64,000 nucleotides of DNA, taken from IMG/VR virus record IMGVR_UViG_3300045391_000045, positions 1-64,000 of that record; one strand, given 5' to 3'. Source of the stretch: a virus. Positions 19,163 through 52,831 of the stretch are shown in pieces (position 1 is the first letter of the stretch; each line of letters opens with the position of its first letter). The notes beneath the pieces were generated by a model. The model worked only from the letters and a program-made list of their open reading frames with translations, did not search any database and was not told the origin of the DNA. The position numbers and the translations under genes are program-made.

Positions 19163-19327
19163 ATGGATTGGTTGAGAAAAGATGAGAGGGTAGAAGTCAT
19201 CGCAGGAGAATACGACGGTAAGCGAGGGAAGGTTACCAAAGTAATCTCAAATGACAGATATCTAGTCTCACTTAACGGAGGTTTTACAGTTGAACTTCCG
19301 CGTAGGTCATTGAAGCGACTGGACTAA
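19163..19327 (+). CDS. small KOW/SH3-like protein (paralog family)
   Basis: 54 aa MDWLRKDERVEVIAGEYDGKRGKVTKV; KOW-like GxxGKVxxV. Confidence 0.4.
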   Translation: MDWLRKDERVEVIAGEYDGKRGKVTKVISNDRYLVSLNGGFTVELPRRSLKRLD

Positions 19328-19370
19328 GAATAATATGGATGGTAGGATACTCCTAAGAAGGTTTAGGAGG

Positions 19371-19937
19371 ATGAAAATGCCTAAGAGAAAGTTTTTCTAT
19401 GATACCGAGTTTCACGAAGATGGTAAAACTATTGATTTGATTTCAATTGCTATGGTTCGTGGAGACGGTAAGGAATATTATGCTGTATCATCTGATGCGG
19501 ATTACAAGCGGGTTTTTGAGAACAGTTGGTTGATGAATCATGTTATGAATACAATCGACCATGTTGTTGTTGAAGACCATCACGGTGGCGGATATACAAT
19601 TATCCCAAAGGGTCCTTTCGTAAGAACCAGAGAACAAATCCGTGATGAAATCCTTGAATTCGTAATGGAAAGTCAGGATGAATTTAACGACCCTCATGGT
19701 GAGGCAAAGGCTGAGTTGTGGGCATGGTATGCTGACTATGACCACGTAGCACTTTGTCAACTGTTTGGTAAGATGATTGACCTTCCAACAGGTTTCCCTA
19801 TGTTTACTAGAGATTTGAGGCAGCATTGGGAGTATAAGGGATATCCTGAGCTTCCAAGACAAGACGATGGTGAACACAACGCACTTGACGATGCACGTCA
19901 CAACCTGGTAATGTATAACTACATGGAAGGTCTGTGA
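19371..19937 (+). CDS. DEDDh 3'-5' exonuclease (RNase T / oligoribonuclease-like)
   Basis: FFYDTEF (Exo I), HNALDDARHN (Exo III with His); RBS AGGAGG. Confidence 0.6.
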   Translation: MKMPKRKFFYDTEFHEDGKTIDLISIAMVRGDGKEYYAVSSDADYKRVFENSWLMNHVMNTIDHVVVEDHHGGGYTIIPKGPFVRTREQIRDEILEFVMESQDEFNDPHGEAKAELWAWYADYDHVALCQLFGKMIDLPTGFPMFTRDLRQHWEYKGYPELPRQDDGEHNALDDARHNLVMYNYMEGL

Positions 19938-19942
19938 GAAGC

Positions 19943-20101
19943 ATGGAAGAGTATACTCTGACTTTGCAGTTGACTGTGAAGATTGAGGCACCAGACGCAG
20001 GTGACGCATTGGACGTAGCACTCGACACTTTTGGCAAGGGTTGCGCTGGTGGCGTGGATGTGGTAGAGTATGAGGTGTTGAAGATTGCTGAACCTAAGTG
20101 A
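19943..20101 (+). CDS. hypothetical small protein
   Basis: 52 aa ORF, coupled to upstream gene. Confidence 0.3.
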   Translation: MEEYTLTLQLTVKIEAPDAGDALDVALDTFGKGCAGGVDVVEYEVLKIAEPK

Positions 20102-20288
20102 ACTTGAAAAGGCCGGGGTTACGGTCAAGAAGTTCTGTGGCCTAGATATGAATGATATGGGTTGCACAGGAGAGGCAGTTGGTGATATCATCGCAGAGAT
20201 GGAAGACGGAGTACAGATTCCAATTCCTGTATGCCAGCAACACCTTGACGTAATTCAGTCACAATATGATGTTGAAAGTCTAGGTTGA
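20085..20288 (+). CDS. hypothetical protein
   Basis: 67 aa. Confidence 0.4.
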   Translation: MLNLSELEKAGVTVKKFCGLDMNDMGCTGEAVGDIIAEMEDGVQIPIPVCQQHLDVIQSQYDVESLG

Positions 20289-20313
20289 CACACACACGGA
20301 CTCTTGCTATGAT
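20285..20313 (+). promoter_or_regulatory. promoter TTGACA-N17-TATGAT
   Basis: precedes tRNA-Ala. Confidence 0.5.
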
Positions 20314-20325
20314 AGAAGAGTCAAT

Positions 20326-20398
20326 GGGGGCTTAGCTCATCTGGTAGAGCATCTGCCTTGCAAGCAGAAGGTGACCGGTTCAAGTCCGGTAGTCTCCA
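20326..20398 (+). tRNA. tRNA-Ala (anticodon TGC)
   Basis: acceptor GGGGGCT/AGTCTCC, D GCTC/GAGC, loop CTTGCAA, T-arm ACCGG-TTCAAGT-CCGGT. Confidence 0.6.
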
Positions 20399-20660
20399 CT
20401 GGTCATATTTGACCTACAAGGAGGTATGCACTATGTTGTATACACTACTAGTAATCTTGGTAATCGTCATTATCTTGATGCTGATTTTCTAAGGAGGTTA
20501 GCATGAGAGGTAGCGACGTAGTATGGACCATCGCAGGAGTTCTTATCTGTATTGCTCTCATCGTATGGCTTGCAGATAACGTAAGCTTCTGATAGAGTAA
20601 AGCTCACGAACCTAGGTCGCCTCTGATGCAAGCTGCCTATCAAGTTGTAGTGCACTGCGC

Positions 20661-20690
20661 TTGACACCCCAGTCCTGGGTCGGGTAATAT
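20661..20690 (+). promoter_or_regulatory. promoter TTGACA-N18-TAATAT
   Basis: precedes tRNA-Lys. Confidence 0.45.
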
Positions 20691-20698
20691 GGACACAT

Positions 20699-20771
20699 GC
20701 TCCGGTAGCTCAGTTGGCAGAGCAGGCGGCTCTTAACCGTCGTGTCGGGAGTTCAAGTCTCCCTCGGAGTA
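20699..20771 (+). tRNA. tRNA-Lys (anticodon CTT)
   Basis: acceptor GCTCCGG/TCGGAGT, loop CTCTTAA, T-arm GGGAG-TTCAAGT-CTCCC. Confidence 0.6.
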
Positions 20772-20796
20772 CGTAATATTGTAAAGTAAATTAAAT

Positions 20797-20825
20797 CCCC
20801 GTTAGAATAATCTGGCGGGGATTTC
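20797..20825 (+). terminator. hairpin ATCCCCG-N14-CGGGGAT + TTCC after tRNA-Lys
   Basis: 7-bp GC stem; near-identical hairpin recurs at 43686 after tRNA-Gly. Confidence 0.4.
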
Positions 20826-20850
20826 CTATTAAACAAACAAGGAGAAAACA

Positions 20851-21654
20851 ATGTTCGGTCGTCGTAAGGCTGCTTTCGTTCCCGATACCACCAAGCGTGT
20901 TCTTAAGACTGTCAAGGTTGTTAAGCGAGACCCTTCTACGGCTGCTGCGCCTGTTGACCTGATTAAGAAGGTTGGTGTTTCTTTCGAAAAGAAGGTTGAG
21001 TCTGCTGTTAATCTGAACAAGAATGTCAGTGGCCCTTCTCGCGGTGTTGTCTGGAATGTTATCGGTCTGCTTGATGAGTCGTACTCTATGGCTCCGTTCT
21101 TCAGTGATGGCACTGTTCAGGAGATTGTTGACCGTGTGCTTGCTTGGTCTGCCTCGGTTGATGCTGATGGCCTGGTGCCTTTCGGCGGATTTGCTGACAG
21201 CCACGTTTGGCACGGTGACGTTGACCTGACTAACGTTAATAACGTCGTTGCTACAAACGGCTGGTCGCCTTGGGGTGGTACCAACCTTGCTGACTCTCTT
21301 CAGGCTATCCTTGACATGGTTCGGGACATGGGAGATGCTTGGCAGGAGAACCCCATCCTTCTGTTCATTGTGACAGACGGTATGCCGTTCAATCGGGACC
21401 TTGTAAAGCAGCTTATTCAGGAACTTTCTCAGTACCCTGTCTTTATCAAGATTCTGCGGGTTGGCAATGACCCTGGTGCTAAGGCTTTCGTTGAGGACCT
21501 TGACAACATGGTTGGTGGTCGTCTGGTGGATAATGTTGAGGCTCCGGATGATGGTCTCCGTAAGGGAATGTCTGACGACAAGTTCAATGCAGCGATGATT
21601 CACGACATGGACAAGTATGTCAACGATGCAACTGCGGTTGGCCTGCTTAGTTGA
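20851..21654 (+). CDS. vWA (von Willebrand factor A) domain protein
   Basis: MIDAS-like DESYSM, TNLADSL and FIVTDG motifs. Confidence 0.6.
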   Translation: MFGRRKAAFVPDTTKRVLKTVKVVKRDPSTAAAPVDLIKKVGVSFEKKVESAVNLNKNVSGPSRGVVWNVIGLLDESYSMAPFFSDGTVQEIVDRVLAWSASVDADGLVPFGGFADSHVWHGDVDLTNVNNVVATNGWSPWGGTNLADSLQAILDMVRDMGDAWQENPILLFIVTDGMPFNRDLVKQLIQELSQYPVFIKILRVGNDPGAKAFVEDLDNMVGGRLVDNVEAPDDGLRKGMSDDKFNAAMIHDMDKYVNDATAVGLLS

Positions 21655-21679
21655 CAAGCCCTTGCTAGTCATGTAAGAT
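21651..21679 (+). promoter_or_regulatory. promoter TTGACA-N17-TAAGAT
   Basis: precedes three-tRNA cluster. Confidence 0.5.
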
Positions 21680-21707
21680 ATAAGAACAAGGCGTCGAAAG
21701 ACGCTAT

Positions 21708-21781
21708 GGCGGTATAGCTCAGTTGGTTAGAGCGTTCCCCTCATAAGGGAAAGGCCACTGGTTCGAGTCCAGTTGCCGCTA
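21708..21781 (+). tRNA. tRNA-Met (anticodon CAT), elongator-like
   Basis: acceptor GGCGGTA/TGCCGCT, anticodon arm TTCCC-CTCATAA-GGGAA, T-arm ACTGG-TTCGAGT-CCAGT. Confidence 0.6.
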
Positions 21782-21782
21782 C

Positions 21783-21855
21783 TGCGCGGTAGTGAAGGTA
21801 GGTATCACGCGGGGCTCATAATCCCGAATCAGGAGTTCAAATCTCCTCTGCGCCA
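21783..21855 (+). tRNA. tRNA with CAT anticodon and unpaired 1-72 (initiator-like or Ile2)
   Basis: acceptor TGCGCGG/CTGCGCC with 1-72 mismatch, anticodon stem CGGGG/TCCCG (three G-C pairs), loop CTCATAA, T-arm AGGAG-TTCAAAT-CTCCT. Confidence 0.5.
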
Positions 21856-21856
21856 C

Positions 21857-21932
21857 GGTCCTTTAGCTGAGATGGATTAGCGCGTGTCTGAAGAACACGA
21901 GAGGTATTAGGGTTCGATTCCCACAGGGACCA
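21857..21932 (+). tRNA. tRNA-Phe (anticodon GAA)
   Basis: acceptor GGTCCTT/AGGGACC, anticodon arm CGTGT-CTGAAGA-ACACG, weak 3-bp T-stem. Confidence 0.5.
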
Positions 21933-21933
21933 C

Positions 21934-22083
21934 ATGGTTAATATCAAGAAGAAGCCATTGTATAAGGCTCAGTCCAAGATGGAAGCTGATTCTTGGATTG
22001 ACAGCACCGGCAAGCGTATGTATCCTGGTCAAAAGCTAATCGTTCACCGGCAGGGTGACGAGTGGCACGTCTATAAGGGGTAA
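21934..22083 (+). CDS. small KOW/SH3-like protein starting 2 nt after tRNA-Phe 3' end
   Basis: 49 aa ...GKRMYPGQKLIVHRQGDEWHVYKG; junction ACCACATGG. Confidence 0.4.
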   Translation: MVNIKKKPLYKAQSKMEADSWIDSTGKRMYPGQKLIVHRQGDEWHVYKG

Positions 22084-22085
22084 AA

Positions 22086-22238
22086 ATGGCACTATTTAAG
22101 AAGGATTCTAAGCCTGCAAAGACAGGCGATGATTCTACACCGGAAGAGAAGGCAGAGCAAGCCTTGAAGTTCCACACTGCATCTGCTAGGTTTGGTAAGG
22201 TCGGAAAGAGAGACAAGACATGGGAGCAGAGCAAGTAA
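22086..22238 (+). CDS. hypothetical small protein
   Basis: 50 aa ORF. Confidence 0.35.
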   Translation: MALFKKDSKPAKTGDDSTPEEKAEQALKFHTASARFGKVGKRDKTWEQSK

Positions 22239-22411
22239 CAGTCTACGATGAAACAATCGCTCGAATGGCAGTCCGGTTGGGCTTGACAGTCGAAGAGGTT
22301 GATGCCATCATGGATATGTATACAGAAGAGTCCAAGCAAGTTCACATTGAGCGAGGCCACTTTAGGCCAAAGCCAAGGGTTGCATCAACTAACCGCACTG
22401 TGCTAGACTAA
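22220..22411 (+). CDS. hypothetical protein
   Basis: 63 aa. Confidence 0.4.
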   Translation: MGAEQVTVYDETIARMAVRLGLTVEEVDAIMDMYTEESKQVHIERGHFRPKPRVASTNRTVLD

Positions 22412-22421
22412 GGAGAACAAA

Positions 22422-22610
22422 ATGGGATGCTGGGATATCGAGCCTAAGACTGAAGAGGAAATTCAGGAACAGGCAAAGAAGATGCTCAATCACCCACTTT
22501 ACATCAAGTTTTTCAAGATTCCACAGGACGAAAGTTTTCAGGAAATCTCTGAAAAGATGATGGAAAATCCATCAACACGAGTTGATTATCTCAGATTGAT
22601 GGGAAAGTAA
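22422..22610 (+). CDS. hypothetical protein
   Basis: 62 aa, RBS AAGGAGAACAAAATG. Confidence 0.45.
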   Translation: MGCWDIEPKTEEEIQEQAKKMLNHPLYIKFFKIPQDESFQEISEKMMENPSTRVDYLRLMGK

Positions 22611-22632
22611 GTAAGACGCCCGAAAGGGCAAT

Positions 22633-22718
22633 GGATGTGTAACACGTAATTGGTAGCGTCGCGGCCTGTAAAGCCGTTGTCCGAAAGGGCTCTGGGGGTT
22701 CAAGTCCCTCCGCATCCA
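22633..22718 (+). tRNA. tRNA-Tyr (anticodon GTA)
   Basis: acceptor GGATGTG/CGCATCC, loop CTGTAAA, long variable arm, T-arm GGGGG-TTCAAGT-CCCTC. Confidence 0.6.
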
Positions 22719-22720
22719 CT

Positions 22721-22792
22721 GTGTCGGTAGCTTAATGGTAGAGCGTTGCGTTGTGGTCGCAATGGTTGCGGGTTCAAATCCCGTCCGACACC
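22721..22792 (+). tRNA. tRNA-His (anticodon GTG)
   Basis: acceptor GTGTCGG/CCGACAC perfect, discriminator C, loop TTGTGGT. Confidence 0.6.
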
Positions 22793-22794
22793 CC

Positions 22795-22866
22795 GGTCCT
22801 TTGTTGCGAGTGGCTAGCAATCGGTCTGCAAAACCGAATACGTGGGTTCGAATCCCACAAGGGCCT
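22795..22866 (+). tRNA. tRNA-Cys (anticodon GCA)
   Basis: acceptor GGTCCTT/AAGGGCC, anticodon arm TCGGT-CTGCAAA-ACCGA, T-arm GTGGG-TTCGAAT-CCCAC. Confidence 0.55.
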
Positions 22867-23230
22867 CTATACATTCTCCGCCTGAATGTAGAAGGTAACC
22901 GCAAGTGTAAAACGCCTTGAAAGCGTGCCTGTGAAAGCGGAACGGGACTCCTCTAGCAGGGAGATTGAAACCATAGGGAATAGCCCGTATAGACCTATGG
23001 CACCACGGACTACGATGTGCTAGCATTGGTGGTGGTTCCGGAGAAGAGGCTAGTCACCTCCAACTGGGTATTATGGTAAGATGAGTTTCGGATGTTGGCT
23101 CTTGAAATACTAAGCATTCAGCGGGTAATGTGAGTTAGGCGGGGGAGCCTGCAAACCTCACAGAATGGCCAGGACTGATACATCCTCCCGTGAAACGTAT
23201 TCAGAGCGTAAGCTGCTACTTACGCATCAT

Positions 23231-23306
23231 TCCCCTATAGCATAATCGGCAGTGCACCGGACTGTTAATCCGCAAAGTTCTGGTTCGAATCCAGATGGGG
23301 GAGCCA
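23231..23306 (+). tRNA. tRNA-Asn (anticodon GTT), CCA encoded
   Basis: acceptor TCCCCTA/TGGGGGA, D GCAT/GTGC, loop CTGTTAA, T-arm TCTGG-TTCGAAT-CCAGA, followed by GCCA. Confidence 0.55.
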
Positions 23307-23557
23307 CACGCACAGAATTGGGAAAAGAACGGATTTGGAAACCACGCAATAACCATGGTAAAGGTGGTGAAAGATGAAGGGGAGATACTGAAGAGCGGTG
23401 CGCCAAGACTATTATCTTGGTAAGGCACCCGCGTGGGACCAAGCTTAGTGGCATCGGTCGAGTGCCCATCTAGAACAATTCGTTTATCCTGGTATACGCG
23501 CTTTCGCGGCGGATTGTTTGAAGATAAAGGGGTCACGCCCATTCGGCCTTTTTTAAT

Positions 23558-23630
23558 GCCTCCGTAGTGAAATGGACAATCACGCTAGTCTTCGGAACTA
23601 GAATTACGGGTTCGAATCCTGTCGGGGGTA
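23558..23630 (+). tRNA. tRNA-Arg (anticodon TCG)
   Basis: acceptor GCCTCCG/CGGGGGT, D GTGA/TCAC, anticodon arm CTAGT-CTTCGGA-ACTAG, T-arm ACGGG-TTCGAAT-CCTGT. Confidence 0.6.
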
Positions 23631-23807
23631 CATGGCAAAGGAAGCAAAGGTAGGCTCCATCGTTTTGATTCTTACAGGAGAGGGCGAAGGAGATACTGCA
23701 ACCGTAGATAGAGTTGACAGAAGTGGCAATATTCGGGCCAAGATGAATAGAGGTCCGAAGTCTGGCCAGTCTGTCTTGTCTCGAAAGGGAAATTACAGGG
23801 TGATTTC

Positions 23808-23981
23808 ATGATTAAGAAGAATGATAAGGTACGCATCTTATACGGAAACCGGGCGGGTGTAATGGCCAAGGTGCTCCGTGTGTATGACACCAATAACATC
23901 AAGGCTAGGGTAATTACTGACGGACCCTTCAAGGGCGAAATCCTTGAGGTAGTCAGAGAAGGTCACTACGCCAAGGCTTGA
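23808..23981 (+). CDS. small KOW/SH3-like protein (paralog family)
   Basis: 57 aa MIKKNDKVRILYGNRAGVMAKVLRV. Confidence 0.45.
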   Translation: MIKKNDKVRILYGNRAGVMAKVLRVYDTNNIKARVITDGPFKGEILEVVREGHYAKA

Positions 23982-24006
23982 CAGTACGAAGCACAGACTG
24001 TAAGGT
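23978..24006 (+). promoter_or_regulatory. promoter TTGACA-N17-TAAGGT
   Basis: overlaps end of KOW gene, precedes tRNA-Arg. Confidence 0.45.
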
Positions 24007-24014
24007 CTGTGTAT

Positions 24015-24086
24015 GCCCTTGAAGTTCAAAGGATGAACAACTCCCTCCTAAGGAGCAGGCTGCTGGTTCGAATCCAGTCAGGGGCA
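24015..24086 (+). tRNA. tRNA-Arg (anticodon CCT)
   Basis: acceptor GCCCTTG/CAGGGGC, D GTTC/GAAC, loop CTCCTAA, T-arm GCTGG-TTCGAAT-CCAGT. Confidence 0.6.
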
Positions 24087-24191
24087 CAAGAAAAAATATA
24101 CAAGGCACAGGGGTTTGGCCCGTCCCCGAATCATGAGCCTTGGGTTCTCGTCCATAGAGAATTTAAGTCAACGGGCCTGCCAAGGAGTGAT

Positions 24192-24386
24192 ATGGCTAAG
24201 ACAAGGAAAATGATTGGCGTCTACTTCGGCAATGATAAGAAAAAGAACTGGATTGGTTCTGCTCATAACAAAGCCATGGTAGAGTTGCTTATTGAAGCAC
24301 ATATGGGCGCTACTGGAAGAAAGCGCAATGAGTACAAAACGTTCAACTATACTGATGACCCTGAAAAATTGGGGCCACCAGACTAA
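24192..24386 (+). CDS. hypothetical protein
   Basis: 64 aa; RBS CAAGGAGTGATATG; the longer track ORF 24009-24386 overlaps tRNA-Arg. Confidence 0.45.
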   Translation: MAKTRKMIGVYFGNDKKKNWIGSAHNKAMVELLIEAHMGATGRKRNEYKTFNYTDDPEKLGPPD

Positions 24387-24665
24387 GGGGTAGCTTGGTT
24401 TCGACTTTGCTGGACGGGATATAAACGCAACCCTTCTTGGTCAAAGAAGTAAAACGGGCCAACCAAATAAATGCAAACTCTATGAATGCATCTGCTTTCG
24501 CTCTAGCAGCGTAAAAGCCGGGTTTGTCGGGAACCTAGGAACAGAATCCCGACTAGTACAAAATGTGTAGATAATGTGTAAGACCCTTCAGTGTGATTGA
24601 CAATGGTTGTAGAACGGTTATATGCTAGATAGTAAAGGACGCGGGTTCGACTCCCGCCTACTCCA
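24387..24665 (+). ncRNA. ssrA: tmRNA (ssrA), tag ANSMNASAFALAA
   Basis: 5' GGGGTAGCTTGGTTTCGAC...GGACGGGAT like tmRNA 5' end; in-frame tag GCA AAC TCT ATG AAT GCA TCT GCT TTC GCT CTA GCA GCG TAA (24473-24514); 3' T-arm GCGGG-TTCGACT-CCCGC + acceptor CTACTCC pairing GGGGTAG. Confidence 0.8.
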
Positions 24666-24676
24666 CACAGAAAGAT

Positions 24677-24856
24677 ATGGTAATGAGAGTAACAAATCTC
24701 TACATCTATGGTACTGTCGAGTACCTGCGTAGGCTTGAGGAAGACTACGTGTTCATGGGTAGACAAGTGAGACTTGAAGATGATAGGCTCATCGTGTTCG
24801 CGCTTCCCAGGAAGAAGCGAAAGAAGTCTCCCAGTAAGCAGCGCCGTAGGCGTTGA
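24677..24856 (+). CDS. hypothetical basic small protein
   Basis: 59 aa ORF with Lys/Arg-rich tail. Confidence 0.3.
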   Translation: MVMRVTNLYIYGTVEYLRRLEEDYVFMGRQVRLEDDRLIVFALPRKKRKKSPSKQRRRR

Positions 24857-25447
24857 CAGACAGGGTTGGAACCTGTTAAGGTATAAGTAGAAGGTCAGGC
24901 AGTCGGACAAGGCTTAGGCGAGTGAGAGTAGTTCAAGCGGTGGTAACTTAAATGCCCACTTAATGATGCTCAACAAATCGGTGGGATGCGAGTGGACTAG
25001 TCCTGACCTTTTAAGCTTCAATCTGTGGATAACGAAAGGGGTCCGGCGTTCTGTGAACTGGCAGTCGGGTAGCCTGGCATGATACAATAAACCTCTAGCG
25101 GGGTTAGTCACCCAAGAGTAAAGTTCATTGAGGGTGAGCAGATTGAAAACTAGGTTGCGAGAGGGACAACGGGTGTGCTAAGGTTAGGTACCGAATCAAG
25201 GCACCAAGGTAGATAAGGGGAGAACAGCAAAGGGTCTCCGTGTATCGCAACCAAGCTTTGCAGCAAGCAGGCCAAACGCTATAGACAGGGATACAAGGTT
25301 CTGAAAAGATAACGCCCATTTGGCAGGGTAGAAAGTTATCACCTGATGCTATCCACGCTGCAACTATGGAGATGACCGGAAACTTCTCCATAAGCTTCCT
25401 TCGTACAAAGCTGTAGGAATAAAAACAAACACGAAGGGTATTAAAAT

Positions 25448-26332
25448 ATGTGGTACATTGGTTTCGCCAGTCTCTTTATTCTCGTCGGTCTGGTCGCTTT
25501 CGTAGTCGGTTTCATGACTAAGAATGACCCGAGCGTTCGAAAGGGGGCCTATGGTGTAACTGCCGCAATGGTTCTTCTGCTTGTGGTTGTCACTGCGTTT
25601 AATTCTGTGACTAAGGTTGATGCTCGTAACGTCGGTATTCAGACTGCTTTTGGTCGGTACCAGGGACAGCTTGACAATGGTCTTCAGATTATCGCACCTT
25701 GGTCTGAGCACGAGGATTTCTCGACGCAGATTCAGTACCTTGACCTTGATGGCGACAAGTGGGCTGATGGCGCTCCGGTCACGTTTTCTGGTGGTGGTCG
25801 TGGTGTTGTTTACGCTACTCCGCGTTGGTACATCAACAAGGAGGATGCTGGTCAGCTCTGGAAGAAGTACAAGACTCTTGACAACGTGAGTGACCGTCTT
25901 GTAAGGTCTTCTGTGAAGGACTCGTTCCGAGCCGTCATGACGGAGTACACCCCGAATGACGCTCGTACCAACGTTCGTGAGATTACTCAGAAGGTCGAAG
26001 ATGACCTTGCCCGTACGCTTGGTGATGATGGTATTAAGATTGACTCCATCAGCATCCGTGATATTCAGCTTGACGACCGTACTCAGGCTTCTCTCGACAA
26101 GATTGTTCAGGCGAACAACGACATTGAGCGAGCCAAGGCGGAGCAGCAGCGTGCTAAGATTGACGCTGAGACGCTGAAGATTAAGCAGAAGGGCGGTAAC
26201 CTTACCGAGGGTGGTCTTACTGACAAGTGTCTCACGGTGATGGACAAGTGGGACGTCAAGAAGAATGGTAACCTTCCTGCGGGATTCTCCTGCAATGGTG
26301 TGGGTACTCCGTTCACTGTCACCAACAAGTGA
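25448..26332 (+). CDS. SPFH/band-7 (stomatin/prohibitin-like) membrane protein
   Basis: N-terminal TM then SPFH-like core, C-terminal coiled coil. Confidence 0.65.
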   Translation: MWYIGFASLFILVGLVAFVVGFMTKNDPSVRKGAYGVTAAMVLLLVVVTAFNSVTKVDARNVGIQTAFGRYQGQLDNGLQIIAPWSEHEDFSTQIQYLDLDGDKWADGAPVTFSGGGRGVVYATPRWYINKEDAGQLWKKYKTLDNVSDRLVRSSVKDSFRAVMTEYTPNDARTNVREITQKVEDDLARTLGDDGIKIDSISIRDIQLDDRTQASLDKIVQANNDIERAKAEQQRAKIDAETLKIKQKGGNLTEGGLTDKCLTVMDKWDVKKNGNLPAGFSCNGVGTPFTVTNK

Positions 26333-26388
26333 CAATCGCGGCCCTTCGGGGCCGCAAGCTTACCTGACAATTTACCTAAGGAGTTGAA

Positions 26389-26691
26389 ATGGCTACCGGC
26401 AAGGAGCGCGGCTACAAGGATTGGAAGCTCTCCAAGGAATTCAAGCGCAGTGCTCGAAACTACACTGAGACCGATGTTATGCCCGCTCGTAAGGTTCGAC
26501 CCAAGAACGCCAAGAAGTGGTGCAAGAAGAAGATTGGTCGTGAGCACAAGTTTGAGAAGACCGGAATGACTTTCTTCTGGGCGGGTTACTTTCCTTGGCA
26601 GATTCGTGACGAATGGCGCACTAGCTACAAGTGTACTGACTGTGGTGCTACCAAGACCGAAAGCGTTTTTCGAGACGTTCCGGTTGACTGA
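26389..26691 (+). CDS. hypothetical protein with C-terminal zinc ribbon
   Basis: 100 aa; hairpin-CAAGCTT upstream; CTDCG. Confidence 0.5.
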   Translation: MATGKERGYKDWKLSKEFKRSARNYTETDVMPARKVRPKNAKKWCKKKIGREHKFEKTGMTFFWAGYFPWQIRDEWRTSYKCTDCGATKTESVFRDVPVD

Positions 26692-26725
26692 TTGGACACT
26701 CAATCTCTCACTGGTATAATGGAGA

Positions 26726-27172
26726 ATGAATCCATCAAGTTGGGAGGAAATTATGAGCGATACATTCCTAGAACAAATGGGATTTAAGTTCATTGCCGAC
26801 CTTTTGACGGAAATCCGAAATGGCCAGTTGAGATTGGAGGAAATCATGGCAGACCTACAGACAGAAGTTGCAGAGCTTCGTGATGCAGTTTCAGGCGTAT
26901 CAGCACGTGTTGATGCACTCGTTGGACCACTTACGGATGCCGTACGAGAGGCACAGGATGCTCTAGCAGCAGAGCGTGAGGCAGCGGCTAATCTAGCAGC
27001 AGCAGAAGACGCTGAGGACGTTGAGCAGAATCGTCAGCTAGATGAGGCTAAGGCAGCTACAGACGCAGCCCTAGCAAACGCTCAGCAGGCATCAGATGAA
27101 ATTAGTGCGGAAACAGACCGTCTAAATTCAATTGCACAGCCAACCACAACTCCAGAAGAGCCACAGGCTTGA
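26726..27172 (+). CDS. coiled-coil protein
   Basis: Ala/Glu-rich heptad-like region. Confidence 0.45.
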   Translation: MNPSSWEEIMSDTFLEQMGFKFIADLLTEIRNGQLRLEEIMADLQTEVAELRDAVSGVSARVDALVGPLTDAVREAQDALAAEREAAANLAAAEDAEDVEQNRQLDEAKAATDAALANAQQASDEISAETDRLNSIAQPTTTPEEPQA

Positions 27173-27195
27173 TAATTAAATAACTTTCAGAACCC

Positions 27196-27226
27196 CGCTT
27201 CGGCGGGGTTTCTGTTTTTGGAGGAT
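27196..27226 (+). terminator. rho-independent terminator
   Basis: AACCCCGC-TTCG-GCGGGGTT then TCTGTTTTT. Confidence 0.7.
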
Positions 27227-27228
27227 AA

Positions 27229-27411
27229 ATGAGAAAGTTCTACGCTATTGGATATGATGAAGCATCAGCACTAAAGGCATGTGTGAATGGCTGGTACACA
27301 AACCAACCTTTCTGGCCTGAGTATGATACACTCCTTCCATATCTTGAGCAAGCAAAGAAGATTGTTCCTGAGATTCCATTGAGGATTTACACAATCAAGG
27401 TTGGTGGATAG
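27229..27411 (+). CDS. hypothetical protein
   Basis: 60 aa, RBS GGAGGATAAATG. Confidence 0.45.
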   Translation: MRKFYAIGYDEASALKACVNGWYTNQPFWPEYDTLLPYLEQAKKIVPEIPLRIYTIKVGG

Positions 27412-27673
27412 AATGTCAAAGAGCCGGAAGAAGTTTCTTTGCCTGGACTGTGGAGTTGATACGGGCCGGATTGGCGAACACTACATGCTCATTGATGAGA
27501 CGTGGCACTTGACAGGGCTTCGCAAGTATGGAATGCTCTGTATTGAGCACGTAGAGAAGCGCATCGGTCGTGAGCTTACGGCCAGTGACTTCAACGACTC
27601 GTACCTGAACAACGCTCGTACAGGTATCGTAAGCCAAAGACTTGCAGAGCGTATGGGTCTTATGGTAAGGTAG
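27401..27673 (+). CDS. zinc-finger protein
   Basis: CLDCG...C..H. Confidence 0.45.
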   Translation: MVDRMSKSRKKFLCLDCGVDTGRIGEHYMLIDETWHLTGLRKYGMLCIEHVEKRIGRELTASDFNDSYLNNARTGIVSQRLAERMGLMVR

Positions 27674-27695
27674 ATTTATCGCCCTTCGGGGCAAT

Positions 27696-27778
27696 GCACA
27701 TATGGCGGAATGGCAGACGCGCTAGCTTGAGGTGCTAGTCTCAGAAATGGGGTGGGAGTTCGACTCTCCCTATGTGCA
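27696..27778 (+). tRNA. tRNA-Leu (anticodon GAG)
   Basis: acceptor GCACATA/TATGTGC perfect, anticodon arm CTAGC-TTGAGGT-GCTAG, long variable arm, T-arm GGGAG-TTCGACT-CTCCC. Confidence 0.6.
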
Positions 27779-27784
27779 CGTCCT

Positions 27785-27934
27785 TGTAGCTTAAAAGGAA
27801 GAGCGCCGTAAAAACGGAGACGGGTCATAATAGGAAAGGTTGCGGATGCACCGAATGGCTCTAGTAGGGTCTGTAGGGAAGCGCGTTTTCCAAGCCTATT
27901 TACAGTGGTGTGAGTTCGAATCTCACCAGGGACA
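27785..27934 (+). ncRNA. interrupted tRNA-like gene: tRNA 5' half and 3' half separated by ~95-nt insertion
   Basis: 5' GTCCTTG-TA-GCTT-AAAAGGAA-GAGC pairs with 3' ...GTGAG-TTCGAAT-CTCAC-CAGGGAC-A; no anticodon arm can be folded between them. Confidence 0.4.
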
Positions 27935-27935
27935 C

Positions 27936-28109
27936 ATGGCTTATCTAAGAGTAGGTGCACAGGTTACAATTTGTGAGAACTTCAATAAGAAGGGTCGAAA
28001 TTGGAAGAACGTAACTGGCTATATTCTTATGATGACTCGCAAGGAAGTGACAGTGCAAACAGAGTATGGTCAAATTATCGTACCTAGGAAAAAGGTGGTG
28101 GCTAATTGA
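27936..28109 (+). CDS. small KOW/SH3-like protein starting 2 nt after tRNA-like 3' end
   Basis: 57 aa MAYLRVGAQVTICENF...; junction CAGGGACACATGG. Confidence 0.4.
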   Translation: MAYLRVGAQVTICENFNKKGRNWKNVTGYILMMTRKEVTVQTEYGQIIVPRKKVVAN

Positions 28110-28381
28110 GCTACATTGTCTGGCGCGACCTTCTTGATATGGATGAGAATGACCCACTTTTCGAGCGGGTTAGCGGTCTTGATGACATTATCACTCAGAA
28201 ATACCAGCAGGGTTGGGTAGAAGATGAATTCGGAATTGGCTGGACCATTGAACAGGCTGAGGAATACATGAAGGAAAAGGGTTATCCATGTATCTTTCCA
28301 GAGCCTAGTTGCTACAATACTCTACTTATCCTGGCATACATGATTAAGAATGGAGAAATTGACCTCAATGGGAATCTTTAA
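28106..28381 (+). CDS. hypothetical protein
   Basis: 91 aa. Confidence 0.45.
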   Translation: MSYIVWRDLLDMDENDPLFERVSGLDDIITQKYQQGWVEDEFGIGWTIEQAEEYMKEKGYPCIFPEPSCYNTLLILAYMIKNGEIDLNGNL

Positions 28382-28538
28382 TCGAGACGGATTCAAGAAC
28401 GGTCAGAAGGTTTATATCCCTAAGATGGCTCAGTATGGTACCGTAAAGATGAAGCGTGGTGGTCTCATCAAGGTTAAGCCGTACAAGAGTAGTGATGAAA
28501 TTTGGGTTCACCCTCATGAGATTGAGGATGGACGCTGA
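28350..28538 (+). CDS. small KOW/SH3-like protein (paralog family)
   Basis: GQKVYIPKMAQYGTVKMKRGGLIKV. Confidence 0.45.
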   Translation: MEKLTSMGIFNRDGFKNGQKVYIPKMAQYGTVKMKRGGLIKVKPYKSSDEIWVHPHEIEDGR

Positions 28539-28552
28539 GCCCGAAAGGGCAT

Positions 28553-28642
28553 GGAAGTGTGGCTGAGTCCGGTTTAAGGCGCTTCACTGCTAATGAAGTG
28601 GTTTCGTAAAGAGGCCCGCAGGTTCGAATCCTGTCACTTCCG
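28553..28642 (+). tRNA. tRNA-Ser (anticodon GCT)
   Basis: acceptor GGAAGTG/CACTTCC perfect, anticodon arm TTCAC-TGCTAAT-GAAGT, long variable arm, T-arm GCAGG-TTCGAAT-CCTGT. Confidence 0.6.
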
Positions 28643-28656
28643 CTGGAGTTGATAAC

Positions 28657-28815
28657 ATGAAACTCTTCAAGAGAAAGTTTCCTTTTAAGAAAAAGGATTG
28701 TCCACACATGCATGTTCGTAATATCTACGGTGATGAAATCATTGCTGCTGGATGGCGTAGAAGTCAGTGTATGGACTGTAGTACATTCTTTAAGAGCCTA
28801 AACGGAAAGGCATAG
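28657..28815 (+). CDS. small zinc-ribbon protein
   Basis: 52 aa CPHMH...CMDC. Confidence 0.35.
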   Translation: MKLFKRKFPFKKKDCPHMHVRNIYGDEIIAAGWRRSQCMDCSTFFKSLNGKA

Positions 28816-28817
28816 AA

Positions 28818-29885
28818 ATGGTACACGTTTCGAAGATTTTCTCGCTCGATGCGTTGCAGAAGGATATCGATGCGGGATTGGTACGTTCACAGGTAAATGA
28901 GGATGGGACGCTCCGCATTTACAATTACACCGAAGAGGTTCAGTACAAGCGAATGTGGAATGACGTTACGCTGAATTGTCGTGGCCTTATTCTCGACAAT
29001 TACATGCACGTTGTTGCTCGTCCATGGAAGAAGTTCTTCAATTTCGGTGAGCGTCCTCTTCTATTCAGCACTGACACTCCGGTTGAGGTGACTGACAAGA
29101 AGGATGGTTCATTGGGTATTCTTTATCGTCACCCAATGACCGGGGATTACCGAATTGCAACTCGTGGCTCTTTCTTGTCTGACCAGGCTATTCACGCTAC
29201 AAAGGTCTGGGACAACAAGTACAGCCACATCGCACAGCCTTGGGATGGAGTTACATTCCTGTTTGAGATTGTGTACCCTGACAATCGCATTGTGCTGGAT
29301 TACGGTGAGCTTGATGACCTAATCTTGCTGGGTGCCGTTCACAATCAGTATGGATGGTACTACGGTCCGAACGAGGCTGCTGGGATGCTCAACTGGACTG
29401 GTCCTGTCACTGAGGTCTTTGAGTACCGGACCACGAACGACTGCTTCAAGGTGCACCGTTCAAATGCTGAGGGTCTGGTAATTCGGGCCGGTAGCGAGAT
29501 GGTCAAGTTGAAGCAGGAGGACTACGTGGCTTTGCACAAGCTAGTCACAGGTCTGAACGAGCGTGCTGTATGGGAGCGCTTGAAGGCAGGCGAGACACGT
29601 GATAGTATCTGTGCATCGCTTCCCGATGAGTTCCACGGATTTGTTGACAAGGTTGCGGATGAGCTAGAGACAAAGTTCAACGAGATTTACCACAGTTCCC
29701 ACGTGGATTACTGTAAGGTGTTGAACATAATGCCTGGCAAATCAAGCATGAGTAAGGCAGACTGGCGTAAGATGTTCGCATCGCACGCTGTTAAGATGCC
29801 TAACTACGACTTGATTTTCAACTACCTTGACAACCGTCCGGTACAGGAGTCTATTTGGAAAATGATTCGTCCTAAGGGCGAGTAA
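28818..29885 (+). CDS. ATP-dependent RNA ligase, Rnl1-like
   Basis: nucleotidyltransferase motif I VTDKKDGSLG (KxDG), 355 aa. Confidence 0.65.
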   Translation: MVHVSKIFSLDALQKDIDAGLVRSQVNEDGTLRIYNYTEEVQYKRMWNDVTLNCRGLILDNYMHVVARPWKKFFNFGERPLLFSTDTPVEVTDKKDGSLGILYRHPMTGDYRIATRGSFLSDQAIHATKVWDNKYSHIAQPWDGVTFLFEIVYPDNRIVLDYGELDDLILLGAVHNQYGWYYGPNEAAGMLNWTGPVTEVFEYRTTNDCFKVHRSNAEGLVIRAGSEMVKLKQEDYVALHKLVTGLNERAVWERLKAGETRDSICASLPDEFHGFVDKVADELETKFNEIYHSSHVDYCKVLNIMPGKSSMSKADWRKMFASHAVKMPNYDLIFNYLDNRPVQESIWKMIRPKGE

Positions 29886-29924
29886 TTTTTCGGCGGGGTT
29901 CGCCCCGCCAAGCTTGGAGGAGAA

Positions 29925-31015: not shown

Positions 31016-31039
31016 GCAACTGCGGCTTCGGCCGCAAGC

Positions 31040-31068
31040 TTGACAACCACATCGGTTGTCTGTTAAGA
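31040..31068 (+). promoter_or_regulatory. promoter AAGCTTGACA-N17-TTAAGAT
   Basis: hairpin GCGGCTTCGGCCGC then AAGCTTGACA; precedes tRNA-Leu. Confidence 0.5.
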
Positions 31069-42245: not shown

Positions 42246-42764
42246 ATGATTCAGCCTGGTATTCGTGTTCGAGTCCGTGACAACTACGCTGGCGGACTTG
42301 ACAACGTAGTGGGTCGTACTGGTAAGGTTCTTCGTGTCAGTCAGGATGGTCTTTACCTGCTTGACATTAAGGGTCGTCGTAAGGCTTCTTGGGGTGACTA
42401 CACCTATGACCGTGAGGTTATTGTCAACGAGTCTGAAATTGAGACTGTAGACTTTGACCTGAAGGATGCCAAGGGTCGTAAGATTGAGCTTGGCGATGAG
42501 GTTGCCTATGGTCCTCTCGGTGGTGGTGTTATCATTGGAACGGTCGTTGACATTGACGAGCGTGAGGGTCGGTATGGTCGAAAGACTGTGAAGTTCCGTC
42601 TTGAAACTAAGACGAAGGAGTTTTACACTGATGGTGGTGACCGTACGATTAGTGGTGCTAACGTTACTAGCTATCGCTGGTATGAGCACTCTGGTCGTTG
42701 TGTTGTCATCAGTAAGAATCCGATTAATGACAACGTATTTACAATTAAGGTTCCTACTTTCTGA
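42246..42764 (+). CDS. tandem KOW/SH3-like repeat protein
   Basis: two repeats of the small-protein family. Confidence 0.5.
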   Translation: MIQPGIRVRVRDNYAGGLDNVVGRTGKVLRVSQDGLYLLDIKGRRKASWGDYTYDREVIVNESEIETVDFDLKDAKGRKIELGDEVAYGPLGGGVIIGTVVDIDEREGRYGRKTVKFRLETKTKEFYTDGGDRTISGANVTSYRWYEHSGRCVVISKNPINDNVFTIKVPTF

Positions 42765-42955
42765 TGGCTAAGAAGAAGCCGAAGCCAATTGGCTCAGGCA
42801 ATTACACTGTTTGTAGAAAGTGCAGAGGCACTGGTCAGACATTCGATATCAAGAAGGCAAACAATCCAAAGGGTCAAGCGATTCTGTGGATTCCCTGCCC
42901 TGATTGTAAGGATGGTACCGGCCAGTCTAGAGGTTGGGTTGACGCAGAGCGTTGA
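42764..42955 (+). CDS. zinc-ribbon protein
   Basis: CRKCRGTG...CPDC. Confidence 0.45.
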   Translation: MAKKKPKPIGSGNYTVCRKCRGTGQTFDIKKANNPKGQAILWIPCPDCKDGTGQSRGWVDAER

Positions 42956-48347: not shown

Positions 48348-48842
48348 ATGCACGTCGTACCAAAATTTGAAGGTGACCACTTCTTCCTGTCTAACTTTTA
48401 CGAGGCTCCCATACGTTTTGTGATGGGTGATGAGATGGTGGTCATGGCTACTGGGGAGCACGCTTTCCAGGCTGCCAAGGGCAACGCCATCCTTGACAAG
48501 GCAGAGAAGATGAGATACGTTCTTTCTGTTGCCGATGCCCCAACACCTGCCAAGGCAAAGTACCTTGGTCGTTCAGTCAAGATAGACCTTGACTGGTGGG
48601 AACGCATCAAGGTAGACTGTATGCGCGAAATTGTATTCCAGAAGTTTTTGCAGAACCCTGAGCTGAGAGTTAAGCTCTTGAATACAGGTGATGCTATGCT
48701 TGTGGAAGGAAATACCTGGGATGATAAATTCTGGGGGCGAGTAGATGGCAAGGGCTATAATAAGCTTGGTGTCATTTTGATGGAAGTGCGCGGATACTGG
48801 TATTGGCAGACACGTAGAAACAATCCGGAGATGGGGTCATGA
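48348..48842 (+). CDS. NADAR (DUF1768, YbiA-like) domain protein
   Basis: FLSNFYEAPIRF, GEHAFQAAK, WDDKFWG motifs typical of NADAR N-glycosidase-like domain. Confidence 0.6.
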   Translation: MHVVPKFEGDHFFLSNFYEAPIRFVMGDEMVVMATGEHAFQAAKGNAILDKAEKMRYVLSVADAPTPAKAKYLGRSVKIDLDWWERIKVDCMREIVFQKFLQNPELRVKLLNTGDAMLVEGNTWDDKFWGRVDGKGYNKLGVILMEVRGYWYWQTRRNNPEMGS

Positions 48843-49000
48843 GCGATAGACAGCCCAATTTTGCCGTGCGAGATGAAGTGGTGTATCTAGGAATGCTGGG
48901 TATCGTAAAGCGAGTTCTTCCTGGCAGGGGTATAAGGTATGTCGTGGAATTCGAGCATGGTAGGCAGACAATTCCCGAAGGAAAGTTGAAGAGAGCGTGA
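48839..49000 (+). CDS. small KOW/SH3-like protein
   Basis: VRDEVVYLGMLGIVKRV. Confidence 0.4.
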   Translation: MSDRQPNFAVRDEVVYLGMLGIVKRVLPGRGIRYVVEFEHGRQTIPEGKLKRA

Positions 49001-49164: not shown

Positions 49165-49329
49165 ATGGAAAAGAAGCCTAAGTACAAGGTTGGACAAAGA
49201 GTGAAGTTCAATGGAGACACTGGTACCATTACGAAGGTCTGGACTACAGACAAGAATATGCCAAAGTACACTGTTGATTTCATCTTCCACACCCATGTAC
49301 TAAGGGAAGACCAGATTAGAAAGGCGTAA
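49165..49329 (+). CDS. small KOW/SH3-like protein
   Basis: KVGQRVKFNGDTGTITKV. Confidence 0.45.
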   Translation: MEKKPKYKVGQRVKFNGDTGTITKVWTTDKNMPKYTVDFIFHTHVLREDQIRKA

Positions 49330-51132: not shown

Positions 51133-51339
51133 ATGGCTCAGATGCCTGAAGAGATGAAGAACCTTGGTGCCCTTATCGCAGTTTCCAAGATTATTGAGGT
51201 TTTTGGTAACCTCTGTGATGCTGCGGAGAAGGCCACTCCTGAGGTTAAGGCTTTCGTAAAGCCTTTCCAAGATGAGGTTGAGAAGTCAGCAGAGGCTCTT
51301 GAGGCTCTGTTTGGCAAGGGTTTTATGGACACTAAGTGA
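51133..51339 (+). CDS. hypothetical protein
   Basis: RBS CTAAGGAGAAATAAAATG. Confidence 0.45.
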   Translation: MAQMPEEMKNLGALIAVSKIIEVFGNLCDAAEKATPEVKAFVKPFQDEVEKSAEALEALFGKGFMDTK

Positions 51340-51383
51340 AATTGGGCGGGTTGTTCGTTGACCCGCCAAGCTTTGGAGGAAAC

Positions 51384-51581
51384 ATGGCTATTTACAAGTA
51401 TGAGATTACTGTGGTAGAGTCAGAGCGTGGTTGGGGCAGAGACTCATGGACTGAAGAATTTGACACCCCAGAAAAGGCTCAGGAACGAATTAACGAAATC
51501 AATTCAAAGAACAAGCCCGGTCCTGCACCAGACTATTACATGCAGGCGTACGACGAAATCCGTGCCGTTCGTAAGGATTGA
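51384..51581 (+). CDS. hypothetical protein
   Basis: hairpin-CAAGCTT-TGGAGGAAACATG. Confidence 0.45.
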   Translation: MAIYKYEITVVESERGWGRDSWTEEFDTPEKAQERINEINSKNKPGPAPDYYMQAYDEIRAVRKD

Positions 51582-51604
51582 CACAGCCACGACTAGGAGG
51601 TAGG

Positions 51605-51748
51605 ATGGCTGCAAAGTTGCCCGGACACAAGTGGCAAGTCACTGGTTCGGATAAGAAGAAGTCTGCTTTTGTGTATACCTGTCGCAAGTGCAAGTGTGTT
51701 ACACTTAGTGGTGAGCCGCTACCGGCTCCGTATGATAAGACATGCTAG
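51605..51748 (+). CDS. small Cys protein
   Basis: RBS CTAGGAGGTAGGATG. Confidence 0.4.
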   Translation: MAAKLPGHKWQVTGSDKKKSAFVYTCRKCKCVTLSGEPLPAPYDKTC

Positions 51749-51749
51749 C

Positions 51750-51779
51750 TTGACAACCAACAAGGAAGGTTGGTAGTAT
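51750..51779 (+). promoter_or_regulatory. promoter TTGACA-N18-TAGTAT, followed 8 nt later by ATG (leaderless transcript candidate)
   Basis: TAGTAT at 51774, ATG at 51787. Confidence 0.4.
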
Positions 51780-51786
51780 CTGAGAC

Positions 51787-51966
51787 ATGAGATACGAAGT
51801 GAGACCGGAAGAAACCAAAGACGGTCGGAAGGTGATAAAGCAATGGGTTATTTGGGATAACGTCGAGAACAAGGTTTTCGCGCGGTTCAGTAATCCAGAG
51901 CAGCCTACTGACATTGTTAACAAGTATCACGCTGCGCAAATGGCAGCCGAAGCAAGAGCGGAGTAA
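51787..51966 (+). CDS. hypothetical small protein, candidate leaderless mRNA
   Basis: 59 aa, no RBS. Confidence 0.35.
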   Translation: MRYEVRPEETKDGRKVIKQWVIWDNVENKVFARFSNPEQPTDIVNKYHAAQMAAEARAE

Positions 51967-51968
51967 AC

Positions 51969-52349
51969 ATGATTGAGTATAACACCACCTGTATTGTCGG
52001 TGGAAGTGAGATGCTTTGTGACCTTAAGTATGATGTTGATAGTCCTGCTGAGGTCAGCTTTACATTCCATACCCCCGACAAGTCTCCTGAGTGGGTTTTC
52101 TCAAGGGAGCTTCTTAAGGAAGCAATGTCTGACCGTGGAATGTCTGGAGAAGGTGACGTTCTTTTCTATGACCATGGTGATGCAGTCAGTATGCTTCTAA
52201 AGTCTCCGGAGGGAACTGGACTCGCCATTTTCCAGCGGGGTGTTATCAAGGAATTCGTTGAAGAAATCTACCATGAGGTAGAAGAGGACGACGACAAGTA
52301 TTTCCTTCCAGACCAGGAACTTAAGGAATGGCTGGAAGGTTTGGTTTAA
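51969..52349 (+). CDS. SsgA-like protein (SsgB-like)
   Basis: FHTPDKSPEWVFSRELLKEA...GEGDV matches conserved FHT/WVFxRxLL/GDV pattern of SsgA-like proteins. Confidence 0.5.
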   Translation: MIEYNTTCIVGGSEMLCDLKYDVDSPAEVSFTFHTPDKSPEWVFSRELLKEAMSDRGMSGEGDVLFYDHGDAVSMLLKSPEGTGLAIFQRGVIKEFVEEIYHEVEEDDDKYFLPDQELKEWLEGLV

Positions 52350-52367
52350 TAAGCTCTTGGGGGTACA

Positions 52368-52553
52368 ATGGACTCAGGAGGCAATATGAATCTGGATTTC
52401 AGCATGAACCCTGGCTTGGAAGTATGGCTAGGAATTCTTCCACCACAATGGGATGACGATGACTTTGATGATTGGGAAGAGGAAGACATGAGGGTTCAGC
52501 AAAAGAGACGAATCATTAAGATTCGCAAGTCAGATTTCAAGAGGAGTTCGTAA
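52368..52553 (+). CDS. hypothetical protein
   Basis: 61 aa. Confidence 0.4.
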   Translation: MDSGGNMNLDFSMNPGLEVWLGILPPQWDDDDFDDWEEEDMRVQQKRRIIKIRKSDFKRSS

Positions 52554-52590
52554 AGGACTCGCCCCACGAAAGTGGGGCAAGCTTCAGGGG

Positions 52591-52620
52591 TTGACAAGGG
52601 GTCCCCCTCTCATCTAAGGT
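52591..52620 (+). promoter_or_regulatory. promoter TTGACA-N18-TAAGGT
   Basis: after hairpin GCCCCAC-GAAAGT-GGGGC-AAGCTT. Confidence 0.45.
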
Positions 52621-52831
52621 GGTTCACATGCAGGTCGGAGGAATTTACAGGTTCCAGGGTGCATCTACCACGGTTCGTGTGGTAGGCTTTGAGCGTGTCG
52701 GATGGTTTCGCCGGTACGTCAAGTTCGTAACGCTGCATAATGGTCAGGTTTGTGGTCCGACACGTGAAGTTCTCGTAAGCTACGCAAAGAACAACTGGGA
52801 ACCGGTTGACGTAGACCACTCGGTAGTGTAA
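52619..52831 (+). CDS. small KOW/SH3-like protein
   Basis: 70 aa. Confidence 0.45.
   Translation: MVHMQVGGIYRFQGASTTVRVVGFERVGWFRRYVKFVTLHNGQVCGPTREVLVSYAKNNWEPVDVDHSVV

Follow-up and report, generated by a model that had tools for sequence, protein, structure and literature searches.

The KOW/SH3-type barrel is the module by which ribosomal protein uL24 and the NusG/Spt5 proteins dock on RNA and the ribosome, and KOW domains also occur in a few further components of the gene-expression machinery. Among phages, gene 156 of the cluster BE1 phage Riptide was annotated as "ribosomal protein uL24" from HHpred (PMC12509530), and uL24 is absent from the text of a survey reporting 14 ribosomal proteins in viruses (PMC6375957). 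Our literature search found no paper on phage KOW mini-proteins. Here we analysed a 64,000-nucleotide stretch of viral DNA (the window; IMG/VR record IMGVR_UViG_3300045391_000045, positions 1 to 64,000), which has 47% G+C and is ~83–85% identical at the nucleotide level to Streptomyces phages of cluster BE2/Loccivirinae (Gilsonvirus) type, e.g., Francob and Gilson. It carries 31 transfer RNA (tRNA) genes and one transfer-messenger RNA (tmRNA) gene, all on the + strand. A first-pass annotation had listed 13 open reading frames (ORFs) between 19163 and 52831, 42246 being counted twice, as a family of at least 14 paralogous KOW/SH3-like proteins. All 13 exist on the + strand at the given positions, but one member, 23632–23811, had been overlooked. 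About 11 of the 14 units stood up to the analysis, plus 23632, whereas 21934, 52619, and the duplication of 42246 did not. About eleven stand-alone, strongly basic proteins of 53–66 amino acids, each a single KOW/Tudor/SH3-like barrel, make up a set in the window that is specific to this lineage. The small genes of this set are all named "hypothetical protein" in related annotated genomes. IMG/VR contained only four related loci, and annotated INPHARED records were used for the comparison; each ORF is named below by the start position first listed for it.

The KOW identity was clearest in four ORFs. The Pfam KOW model (PF00467) has a gathering cut-off of 22.3 bits, which was exceeded by 19163 (19163–19327, 54 amino acids, isoelectric point (pI) 9.6; 25.0 bits) and 23808 (23808–23981, 57 amino acids, pI 10.0; 28.3 bits). 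Below it were 23632 (23632–23811, 59 amino acids, pI 10.3; 16.7 bits), which overlaps 23808 by ATGA, and 31613 (31613–31801, 62 amino acids, pI 10.1; 15.4 bits), the most conserved of the core proteins; the other ten candidates did not reach the Pfam KOW cut-off. A single profile built from all four core families matched 170 PDB sequences at E < 1. Among these were the Spt5 KOW domain (E 2e-10), archaeal NusG/Spt5 (E 5e-5), and bacterial uL24 (E 2e-6), whose alignment began at residue 1 on either side. Judged by these profiles and the comparisons below, 19163, 23632, 23808, and 31613 are core KOW-motif paralogues.

Membership of the uL24 family itself was tried and rejected, because the best score against NCBIfam TIGR01079 was 24.8 bits (19163) against a cut-off of 53.7, and only positions 4–35 of 104 were matched. 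The NusG/Spt5 family was rejected in the same way: TIGR00405 gave 12–20 bits against a cut-off of 70 and matched the KOW part alone, as did the UpxY model, and at E ≤ 1 there was no match to the model of bacterial NusG. Since the uL24, NusG/Spt5, and UpxY models match the KOW part only, each protein is a single free KOW-type barrel. A phage uL24 that replaces the host uL24 in ribosomes would fit the best single-domain matches, which are bacterial uL24 from residue 1, and the names given by the Joint Genome Institute (JGI), which calls several homologues "ribosomal protein L24", including one identical to 23808. The Riptide annotation agrees with this idea. But the score is less than half of the cut-off, the whole C-terminal half of uL24 is missing, and the survey of viral ribosomal proteins does not mention uL24 in its text, so we regard such a replacement as extremely improbable. 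The JGI name and the BE1 uL24 annotation overstate the case.

The relationship among the candidates was hardly visible in pairwise comparisons. The proposed shared core, G-x-(K/R)-V-x-(I/V)...GK.G.V, proved loose when taken literally: G-x-[KR]-V-x-[IV] occurred in 3/14 units and GK.G.[VI] in 2/14, with both in 31613 only. However, these motifs were about 60-fold commoner in the candidates than among the non-candidate proteins encoded in the window. A phmmer search among the candidates connected a single pair, 19163–31613 (E 4e-7). The core hidden Markov model (HMM) alone did not significantly detect non-core members in the window; its best non-core match was 49165 (E 0.049, vs 1.1 for the best reversed decoy). 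PHROGs offered no useful family for the candidates.

Profile–profile comparison was much more informative. Orthologue alignments were made for 147 ORF groups and compared with hhalign, and the profiles were later enriched with database homologues. In the first pass, candidate–candidate pairs were 18 of the 25 best matches, though they make up only 78 of 1,820 pairs. Within the core, hhalign probabilities were 97% for 23632–23808, 95% for 19163–31613, and 92% for 19163–23632. The core four were linked with 84% to 48839 (48839–49000, 53 amino acids, pI 10.1) and 49165 (49165–49329, 54 amino acids, pI 9.9), which are paralogues in the same BLAST cluster. The probable members 31202 (31202–31375, 57 amino acids, pI 10.0), a probable KOW-type barrel, and 41885 (41885–42079, 64 amino acids, pI 9.9) matched each other with 78% over 50 columns, and their merged profile matched 48839/49165 with 91%. 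Further out, 48839/49165 were linked to 31416 (31416–31616, 66 amino acids, pI 10.3), another probable member, with 51–59%, and 31202/41885 to 28350 (28368–28538, 56 amino acids from 28368, pI 9.8) with 42%. In this way, ten small ORFs were joined in one profile–profile network, and in the enriched comparison none of the non-candidates among 113 small ORF groups had a link beyond a few columns. We therefore take 31202, 41885, 48839, 49165, 31416, and 28350 to be remote homologues of the core, as read from profile similarity.

The weak non-core matches all fell in SH3-like families, including eS4 and the MscS beta domain. ORF 31202 had weak Pfam matches to YajC and Tudor_RapA, and the best PDB match of the merged 31202/41885 profile was the KOW domain of archaeal uL24 (E 0.1). 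For 31416, there was a weak Pfam match to SH3_3, and the Spt5 KOW domain was among the top PDB matches (E 1.3); 49165 had weak Pfam matches to SH3_13, NifZ, and DUF4926. PDB profile searches with 48839/49165, 31416, and 52619 gave nothing significant. A mixed eight-family database alignment yielded some homologues for 27936, 28350, 31416, and 48839, but none for 52619, 31202, 41885, and 42246. Structures were then predicted for 27936 (27936–28109, 57 amino acids, pI 10.1) and 28350, which had the least sequence support among the members with homologues. Both were predicted as KOW-like SH3 barrels, with the features of the small-barrel group of KOW, Tudor, and chromo domains: five strands, a 3-10 turn before the last strand, and superposition on known members. 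Accordingly, 28350 is best described as an SH3-like/Tudor/KOW barrel by model and profile, while 27936, for which profile–profile comparison found no sequence link to the other candidates, shares the predicted fold only. The KOW/SH3-like reading of the set was thus borne out by two members over the Pfam cut-off, by the profile matches to Spt5, uL24, and NusG, and by the two predicted barrels.

Two of the listed ORFs drew a blank in every test applied to them. ORF 21934 (21934–22083, 49 amino acids, pI 9.8) had no Pfam, PDB, or hhalign link and is a small gene conserved in five relatives, whose family membership is unsupported. The same is true for the membership of 52619 (52619–52831, 70 amino acids, pI 9.5), a conserved small gene with no Pfam, PDB, or hhalign signal. 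ORF 42246 (42246–42764, 172 amino acids, pI 8.6) encodes a longer, conserved protein whose N-terminal and central parts are barrel-like. It had been described as a tandem double copy, but its halves are unrelated (hhalign probability 0.24% for the N-terminal vs the C-terminal part), so the duplication was dropped. Residues 72–117 match the Tudor-like protein 4p5n (E 1.5e-4), and the N-terminal part reached only 17% with 19163; the protein may hold two unrelated barrels. Directly after it, 42764–42955 encodes a basic 63-amino-acid protein with CxxC...CxxC and a weak match to the DnaJ zinc finger (E 1.5e-4).

For most of the ORFs, an orthologue occurs at the syntenic position in Gilson, Francob, Comrade, Annadreamy, TunaTartare, or metagenomic contigs, and the differences from these orthologues were about twofold commoner on third codon positions, which means that the ORFs are coding and under purifying selection. 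Mechanical ORF calling extends 27936 and 31202 upstream, so that their listed starts are ATGs inside longer frames. Because the upstream extensions overlap a tRNA-like RNA and tRNA-Leu, respectively, the starts chosen in the first-pass annotation are right, and a GAGGGAG Shine–Dalgarno sequence is found at the start of 31202. For 28350, the orthologues start at 28368, and the in-frame ATG at 28350 lies upstream.

The charge of the candidates sets them apart. The 13 small candidates have a pI of 9.5–10.3, whereas the median of 47 other conserved small ORFs was 5.3 and only 30% of these were above 9. The surrounding genes are RNA-centred and include Ro60, two RNA ligases, polynucleotide kinase, and the tmRNA. 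Thus, the KOW identity, the basic pI, and this neighbourhood together favour binding to RNA, the ribosome, or RNA polymerase, and a role in RNA binding or translation, as first proposed, is plausible from pI, KOW biology, and the RNA-centred context. In the explanation to which we lean with moderate confidence, each mini-protein would be a free docking module for a structured RNA or for a site on the host's translation or transcription apparatus to which a KOW domain usually binds. Candidate sites would be the place of uL24 on 23S rRNA, ribosomal protein S10/NusE, Rho, and RNA polymerase. Host gene expression would be tuned or blocked in this way, or the proteins might chaperone phage RNAs. 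They would be co-transcribed with the phage tRNAs, and in at least three of them (23632, 27936, and 41885) the start codon directly follows a tRNA or tRNA-like 3′ end.

The same charge and size recall Sso7d and Cren7, which are basic SH3-like barrels of ~7 kDa. By analogy, the phage proteins could be non-specific coaters of double-stranded DNA acting beside an Lsr2-like protein; their length of 53–66 amino acids, pI of ~10, and SH3-like barrel would suit this, and a gene for an Lsr2-like DNA-bridging protein lies close by in relatives. However, the sequence likeness is to the KOW domains of uL24, Spt5, and NusG, and non-specific coating would not call for a dozen diverged copies, so we consider this function very unlikely.

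To see how widespread the set is, the core profile was compared with 5.8 billion proteins. This gave 57 clusters, all of 46–65 amino acids, and those with long contigs or a source name came from BE-type Streptomyces phages (~115–131 kb). An HMMER scan of 1.84 billion representatives found 332 matches at E ≤ 0.001, mostly long multi-KOW proteins, with about 20 small ones. ORF 31613 was present in 30 phage records, all of Streptomyces phages and always as a hypothetical protein. No orthologue of 19163 was found in the related phage records compared. Members are down to 40–50% identity among relatives, while the genome is ~83% identical; for example, 23808 is 91% identical in Francob and 43% in Gilson. 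In the slot after tRNA-Leu(tag), Gilson and Francob have another 56-amino-acid basic protein with a textbook KOW motif (MGYTRVRKGDNVFVQKGPDKGKKLKV...) instead of 31202 (L001 16970–17140 and L006 15027–15197), and this replacement is not an orthologue of 31202. That the slot of a lost member was refilled by another KOW-motif protein suggests that their functions are of a common kind. DekoNeimoidia, a distant relative scanned over its whole genome, retains 34 tRNA/tmRNA genes, but 42246 is the sole family present. The set is lineage-specific, has a fast turnover, and is actively reshuffled by gain, loss, and same-slot replacement.

The first-pass annotation had also regarded the family as dedicated to the tRNA island. 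This was not supported, since there was no excess of candidates next to tRNAs among small conserved genes (6/22 vs 4/20, Fisher p = 0.72) or inside versus outside the island (10/42 vs 3/17, p = 0.74). A role in tRNA handling, in which the proteins bind tRNA or tmRNA precursors and help to process or modify them or shield them from host anticodon nucleases, could draw on their basic charge, on co-transcription with the tRNAs and tmRNA, on the four candidates that abut a tRNA or tRNA-like 3′ end, and on the RNA repair gene set close by. But the candidates are no more associated with tRNA genes than small genes in general, the island does not include three of them, among which 48839 and 49165 are linked members, and DekoNeimoidia keeps its tRNA/tmRNA genes without these families. 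To our knowledge, no KOW protein acts as a tRNA-processing factor. No evidence points specifically to tRNA handling, and we judge it quite unlikely; the tRNA proximity probably reflects expression instead.

Some of the genes do have a peculiar relation to tRNA ends. Start codons were found at the base directly after a tRNA or tRNA-like 3′ end at five of 34 ends, whereas 0.39 were expected (P = 4e-5). The junctions are 18991/18992 (GTG), 21933/21934 (after tRNA-Phe), 23631/23632 (after tRNA-Arg(tcg)), 27935/27936 (after the tRNA-like RNA), and 41884/41885 (after tRNA-Glu(ttc)), all of the form ...A-C then [A/G]TG, i.e., discriminator plus C followed by ATG or GTG. The ORFs at the five junctions are all conserved, and the junctions were kept in Gilson, Francob, Comrade, and a metagenomic contig even when the proteins were only 47–75% identical; the zero-base junction of tRNA-Phe with 21934 is conserved as well. 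In Annadreamy, TunaTartare, and DekoNeimoidia, other ORFs (a 62-amino-acid SH3-looking protein and a nuclease) abut tRNA-Leu and tRNA-Gln likewise. So the geometry covers several small genes and not the KOW ones alone, and three of the five abutting ORFs encode a supported KOW-type or SH3-like barrel. The tRNA at 18913–18990, which precedes GTG 18992 and follows tRNA-Arg(gcg), is an extra one that was missed by ARAGORN (Rfam tRNA 34.2 bits, gathering 29).

Because these tRNAs abut start codons, tRNA 3′ processing would give mRNAs with a leader of 0 or 1 nucleotide. Actinobacteria translate leaderless mRNAs well. The layout resembles the "tRNA punctuation" of mitochondria. In the boldest reading, short transcription units led by tRNAs or a tRNA-like RNA would release leaderless mRNAs for barrels that dock on host ribosomes or the transcription–translation coupling machinery and thereby favour the expression of phage genes; we think this unlikely. 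Our literature search found no paper on tRNA punctuation or on leaderless mRNAs from tRNA processing in phages. Sigma-70-like promoters with a perfect TTGACA were seen at 18740–18768, 20285–20313, 20661–20690, 21651–21679, and 31040–31069, 10–70 nucleotides upstream of tRNA-Arg, Ala, Lys, Met, and Leu, and the total was 35 sites vs 22.7 ± 5.4 in shuffles. Promoters ahead of tRNAs suggest many short transcription units led by tRNAs. Moreover, a G+C-rich hairpin without a T-run precedes 13 of 27 tRNAs with a spacer of >30 nucleotides and ends 2–5 nucleotides from the tRNA 5′ end (for example, at 21708, 22633, 24015, 27696, 28553, 32006, 40299, 42102, and 43958). The loops are often GAAA or TTCG, and 9% of background 30-mers were equally stable. 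Once ribonuclease P has cut, such hairpins may shield the upstream mRNA at its 3′ end. At the tmRNA gene (24387–24666), the TAA of the ORF ending at 24386 abuts the 5′ end, so that ribonuclease P cleavage would leave this mRNA without a 3′ untranslated region.

Several results weigh against the docking-module explanation. The profile links of 31416 and 28350 are just 40–60%, the models of 27936 and 28350 are built on shallow alignments of 9–10 sequences each, and the barrel of 27936 could have arisen by convergence and not by paralogy. The proposed function is drawn from fold, charge, and context, and leaderless expression is drawn from geometry; the lack of enrichment next to tRNAs given above also belongs here. 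Small SH3-like barrels are abundant among phage proteins (1,599 BFVD matches at E ≤ 10), and since the SH3-like barrel serves many unrelated functions, the fold does not fix the function. The candidates may then be a mixed bag: accessory genes that evolve fast, happen to have the commonest small beta-barrel fold, and serve unrelated functions through protein–protein contacts, for example in host takeover or anti-defence. Their place among the tRNAs would then reflect only that small genes and homing endonucleases gather in this variable part of the genome. Small SH3-like proteins are indeed widespread in phages infecting many hosts, and the region contains HNH endonuclease genes and shows high turnover between close relatives. 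That 27936 has no sequence link to the others and that neither tRNA neighbourhood nor island is enriched in candidates would also be expected from a mixed bag. However, ten ORFs are profile-linked, against none of about 100 other small ORF groups, the candidates are uniformly basic, unlike their neighbours, and the slot of a lost member holds another KOW-motif protein. So we treat the mixed bag as a serious but less likely rival, and continue with free KOW docking modules as the preferred explanation.

The tRNA-like RNA directly upstream of 27936 lies at 27780–27934 on the + strand, after tRNA-Leu(gag). It scored 38.2 bits with the Rfam tRNA model (gathering 29) and was missed by ARAGORN. The RNA has an acceptor stem, D-arm, and T-arm, and a structured insert of 98 nucleotides replaces the anticodon arm. 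It is conserved in three relatives, the four sequences show three compensatory pairs, and the insert is longer in Gilson. An orthologue of Ro60 is encoded at 15934–17550, immediately upstream of the tRNA island (TROVE E 3e-37; Ro60 vWA E 5e-56). Because the phage encodes Ro60, the RNA may be a Y-RNA-like partner. The Rfam YrlA model gave only 18 bits with it, and YrlA differs in its ends, as those of the phage RNA sit at the acceptor stem.

If the preferred explanation is right, about ten diverged, free-standing basic KOW copies form a natural library of KOW docking modules. With ribosomes, Rho, S10, or RNA polymerase as targets, the proteins would provide new small probes or blockers of transcription–translation coupling in Actinobacteria. 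The automated names can be corrected, because these proteins are not "ribosomal protein L24", and the abutting starts suggest a testable route from tRNA processing to leaderless mRNAs in a phage.

Compared with known systems, bacterial uL24 shares the motif, the fold, and the basic charge, and 19163 is presumably ~45–50% identical to Streptomyces uL24 over the ~25-residue motif. But the phage proteins correspond to the first third only (54–62 vs ~104 amino acids), and uL24 is single in bacteria, whereas the phage has several diverged copies per genome. The KOW domains of NusG, Spt5, and RfaH dock on S10, Rho, RNA polymerase, and nucleic acids; the phage proteins have no NGN domain, for which there is no room in 54–62 amino acids, so they are not elongation factors themselves, and all that a KOW domain on its own could do is compete for the docking sites of such domains. 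OapB (PDB 7k9b), a small KOW-like protein with an established RNA partner, OLE RNA, is bacterial and ~98 amino acids long; it is a parallel by type. Riptide gene 156 comes from a related phage group and is a lone annotation, based on a KOW match, in a genome announcement of 2025 that describes neither a family nor an expansion, a structure, or a check of uL24 membership (PMC12509530). Finally, the small SH3-like proteins in BFVD, from phages of Streptomyces, Pseudomonas, Acinetobacter, Klebsiella, and others, have the same size and fold but are known by fold match, whereas in the set described here the KOW motif is present in four proteins, similarity joins ten, and every one is basic.

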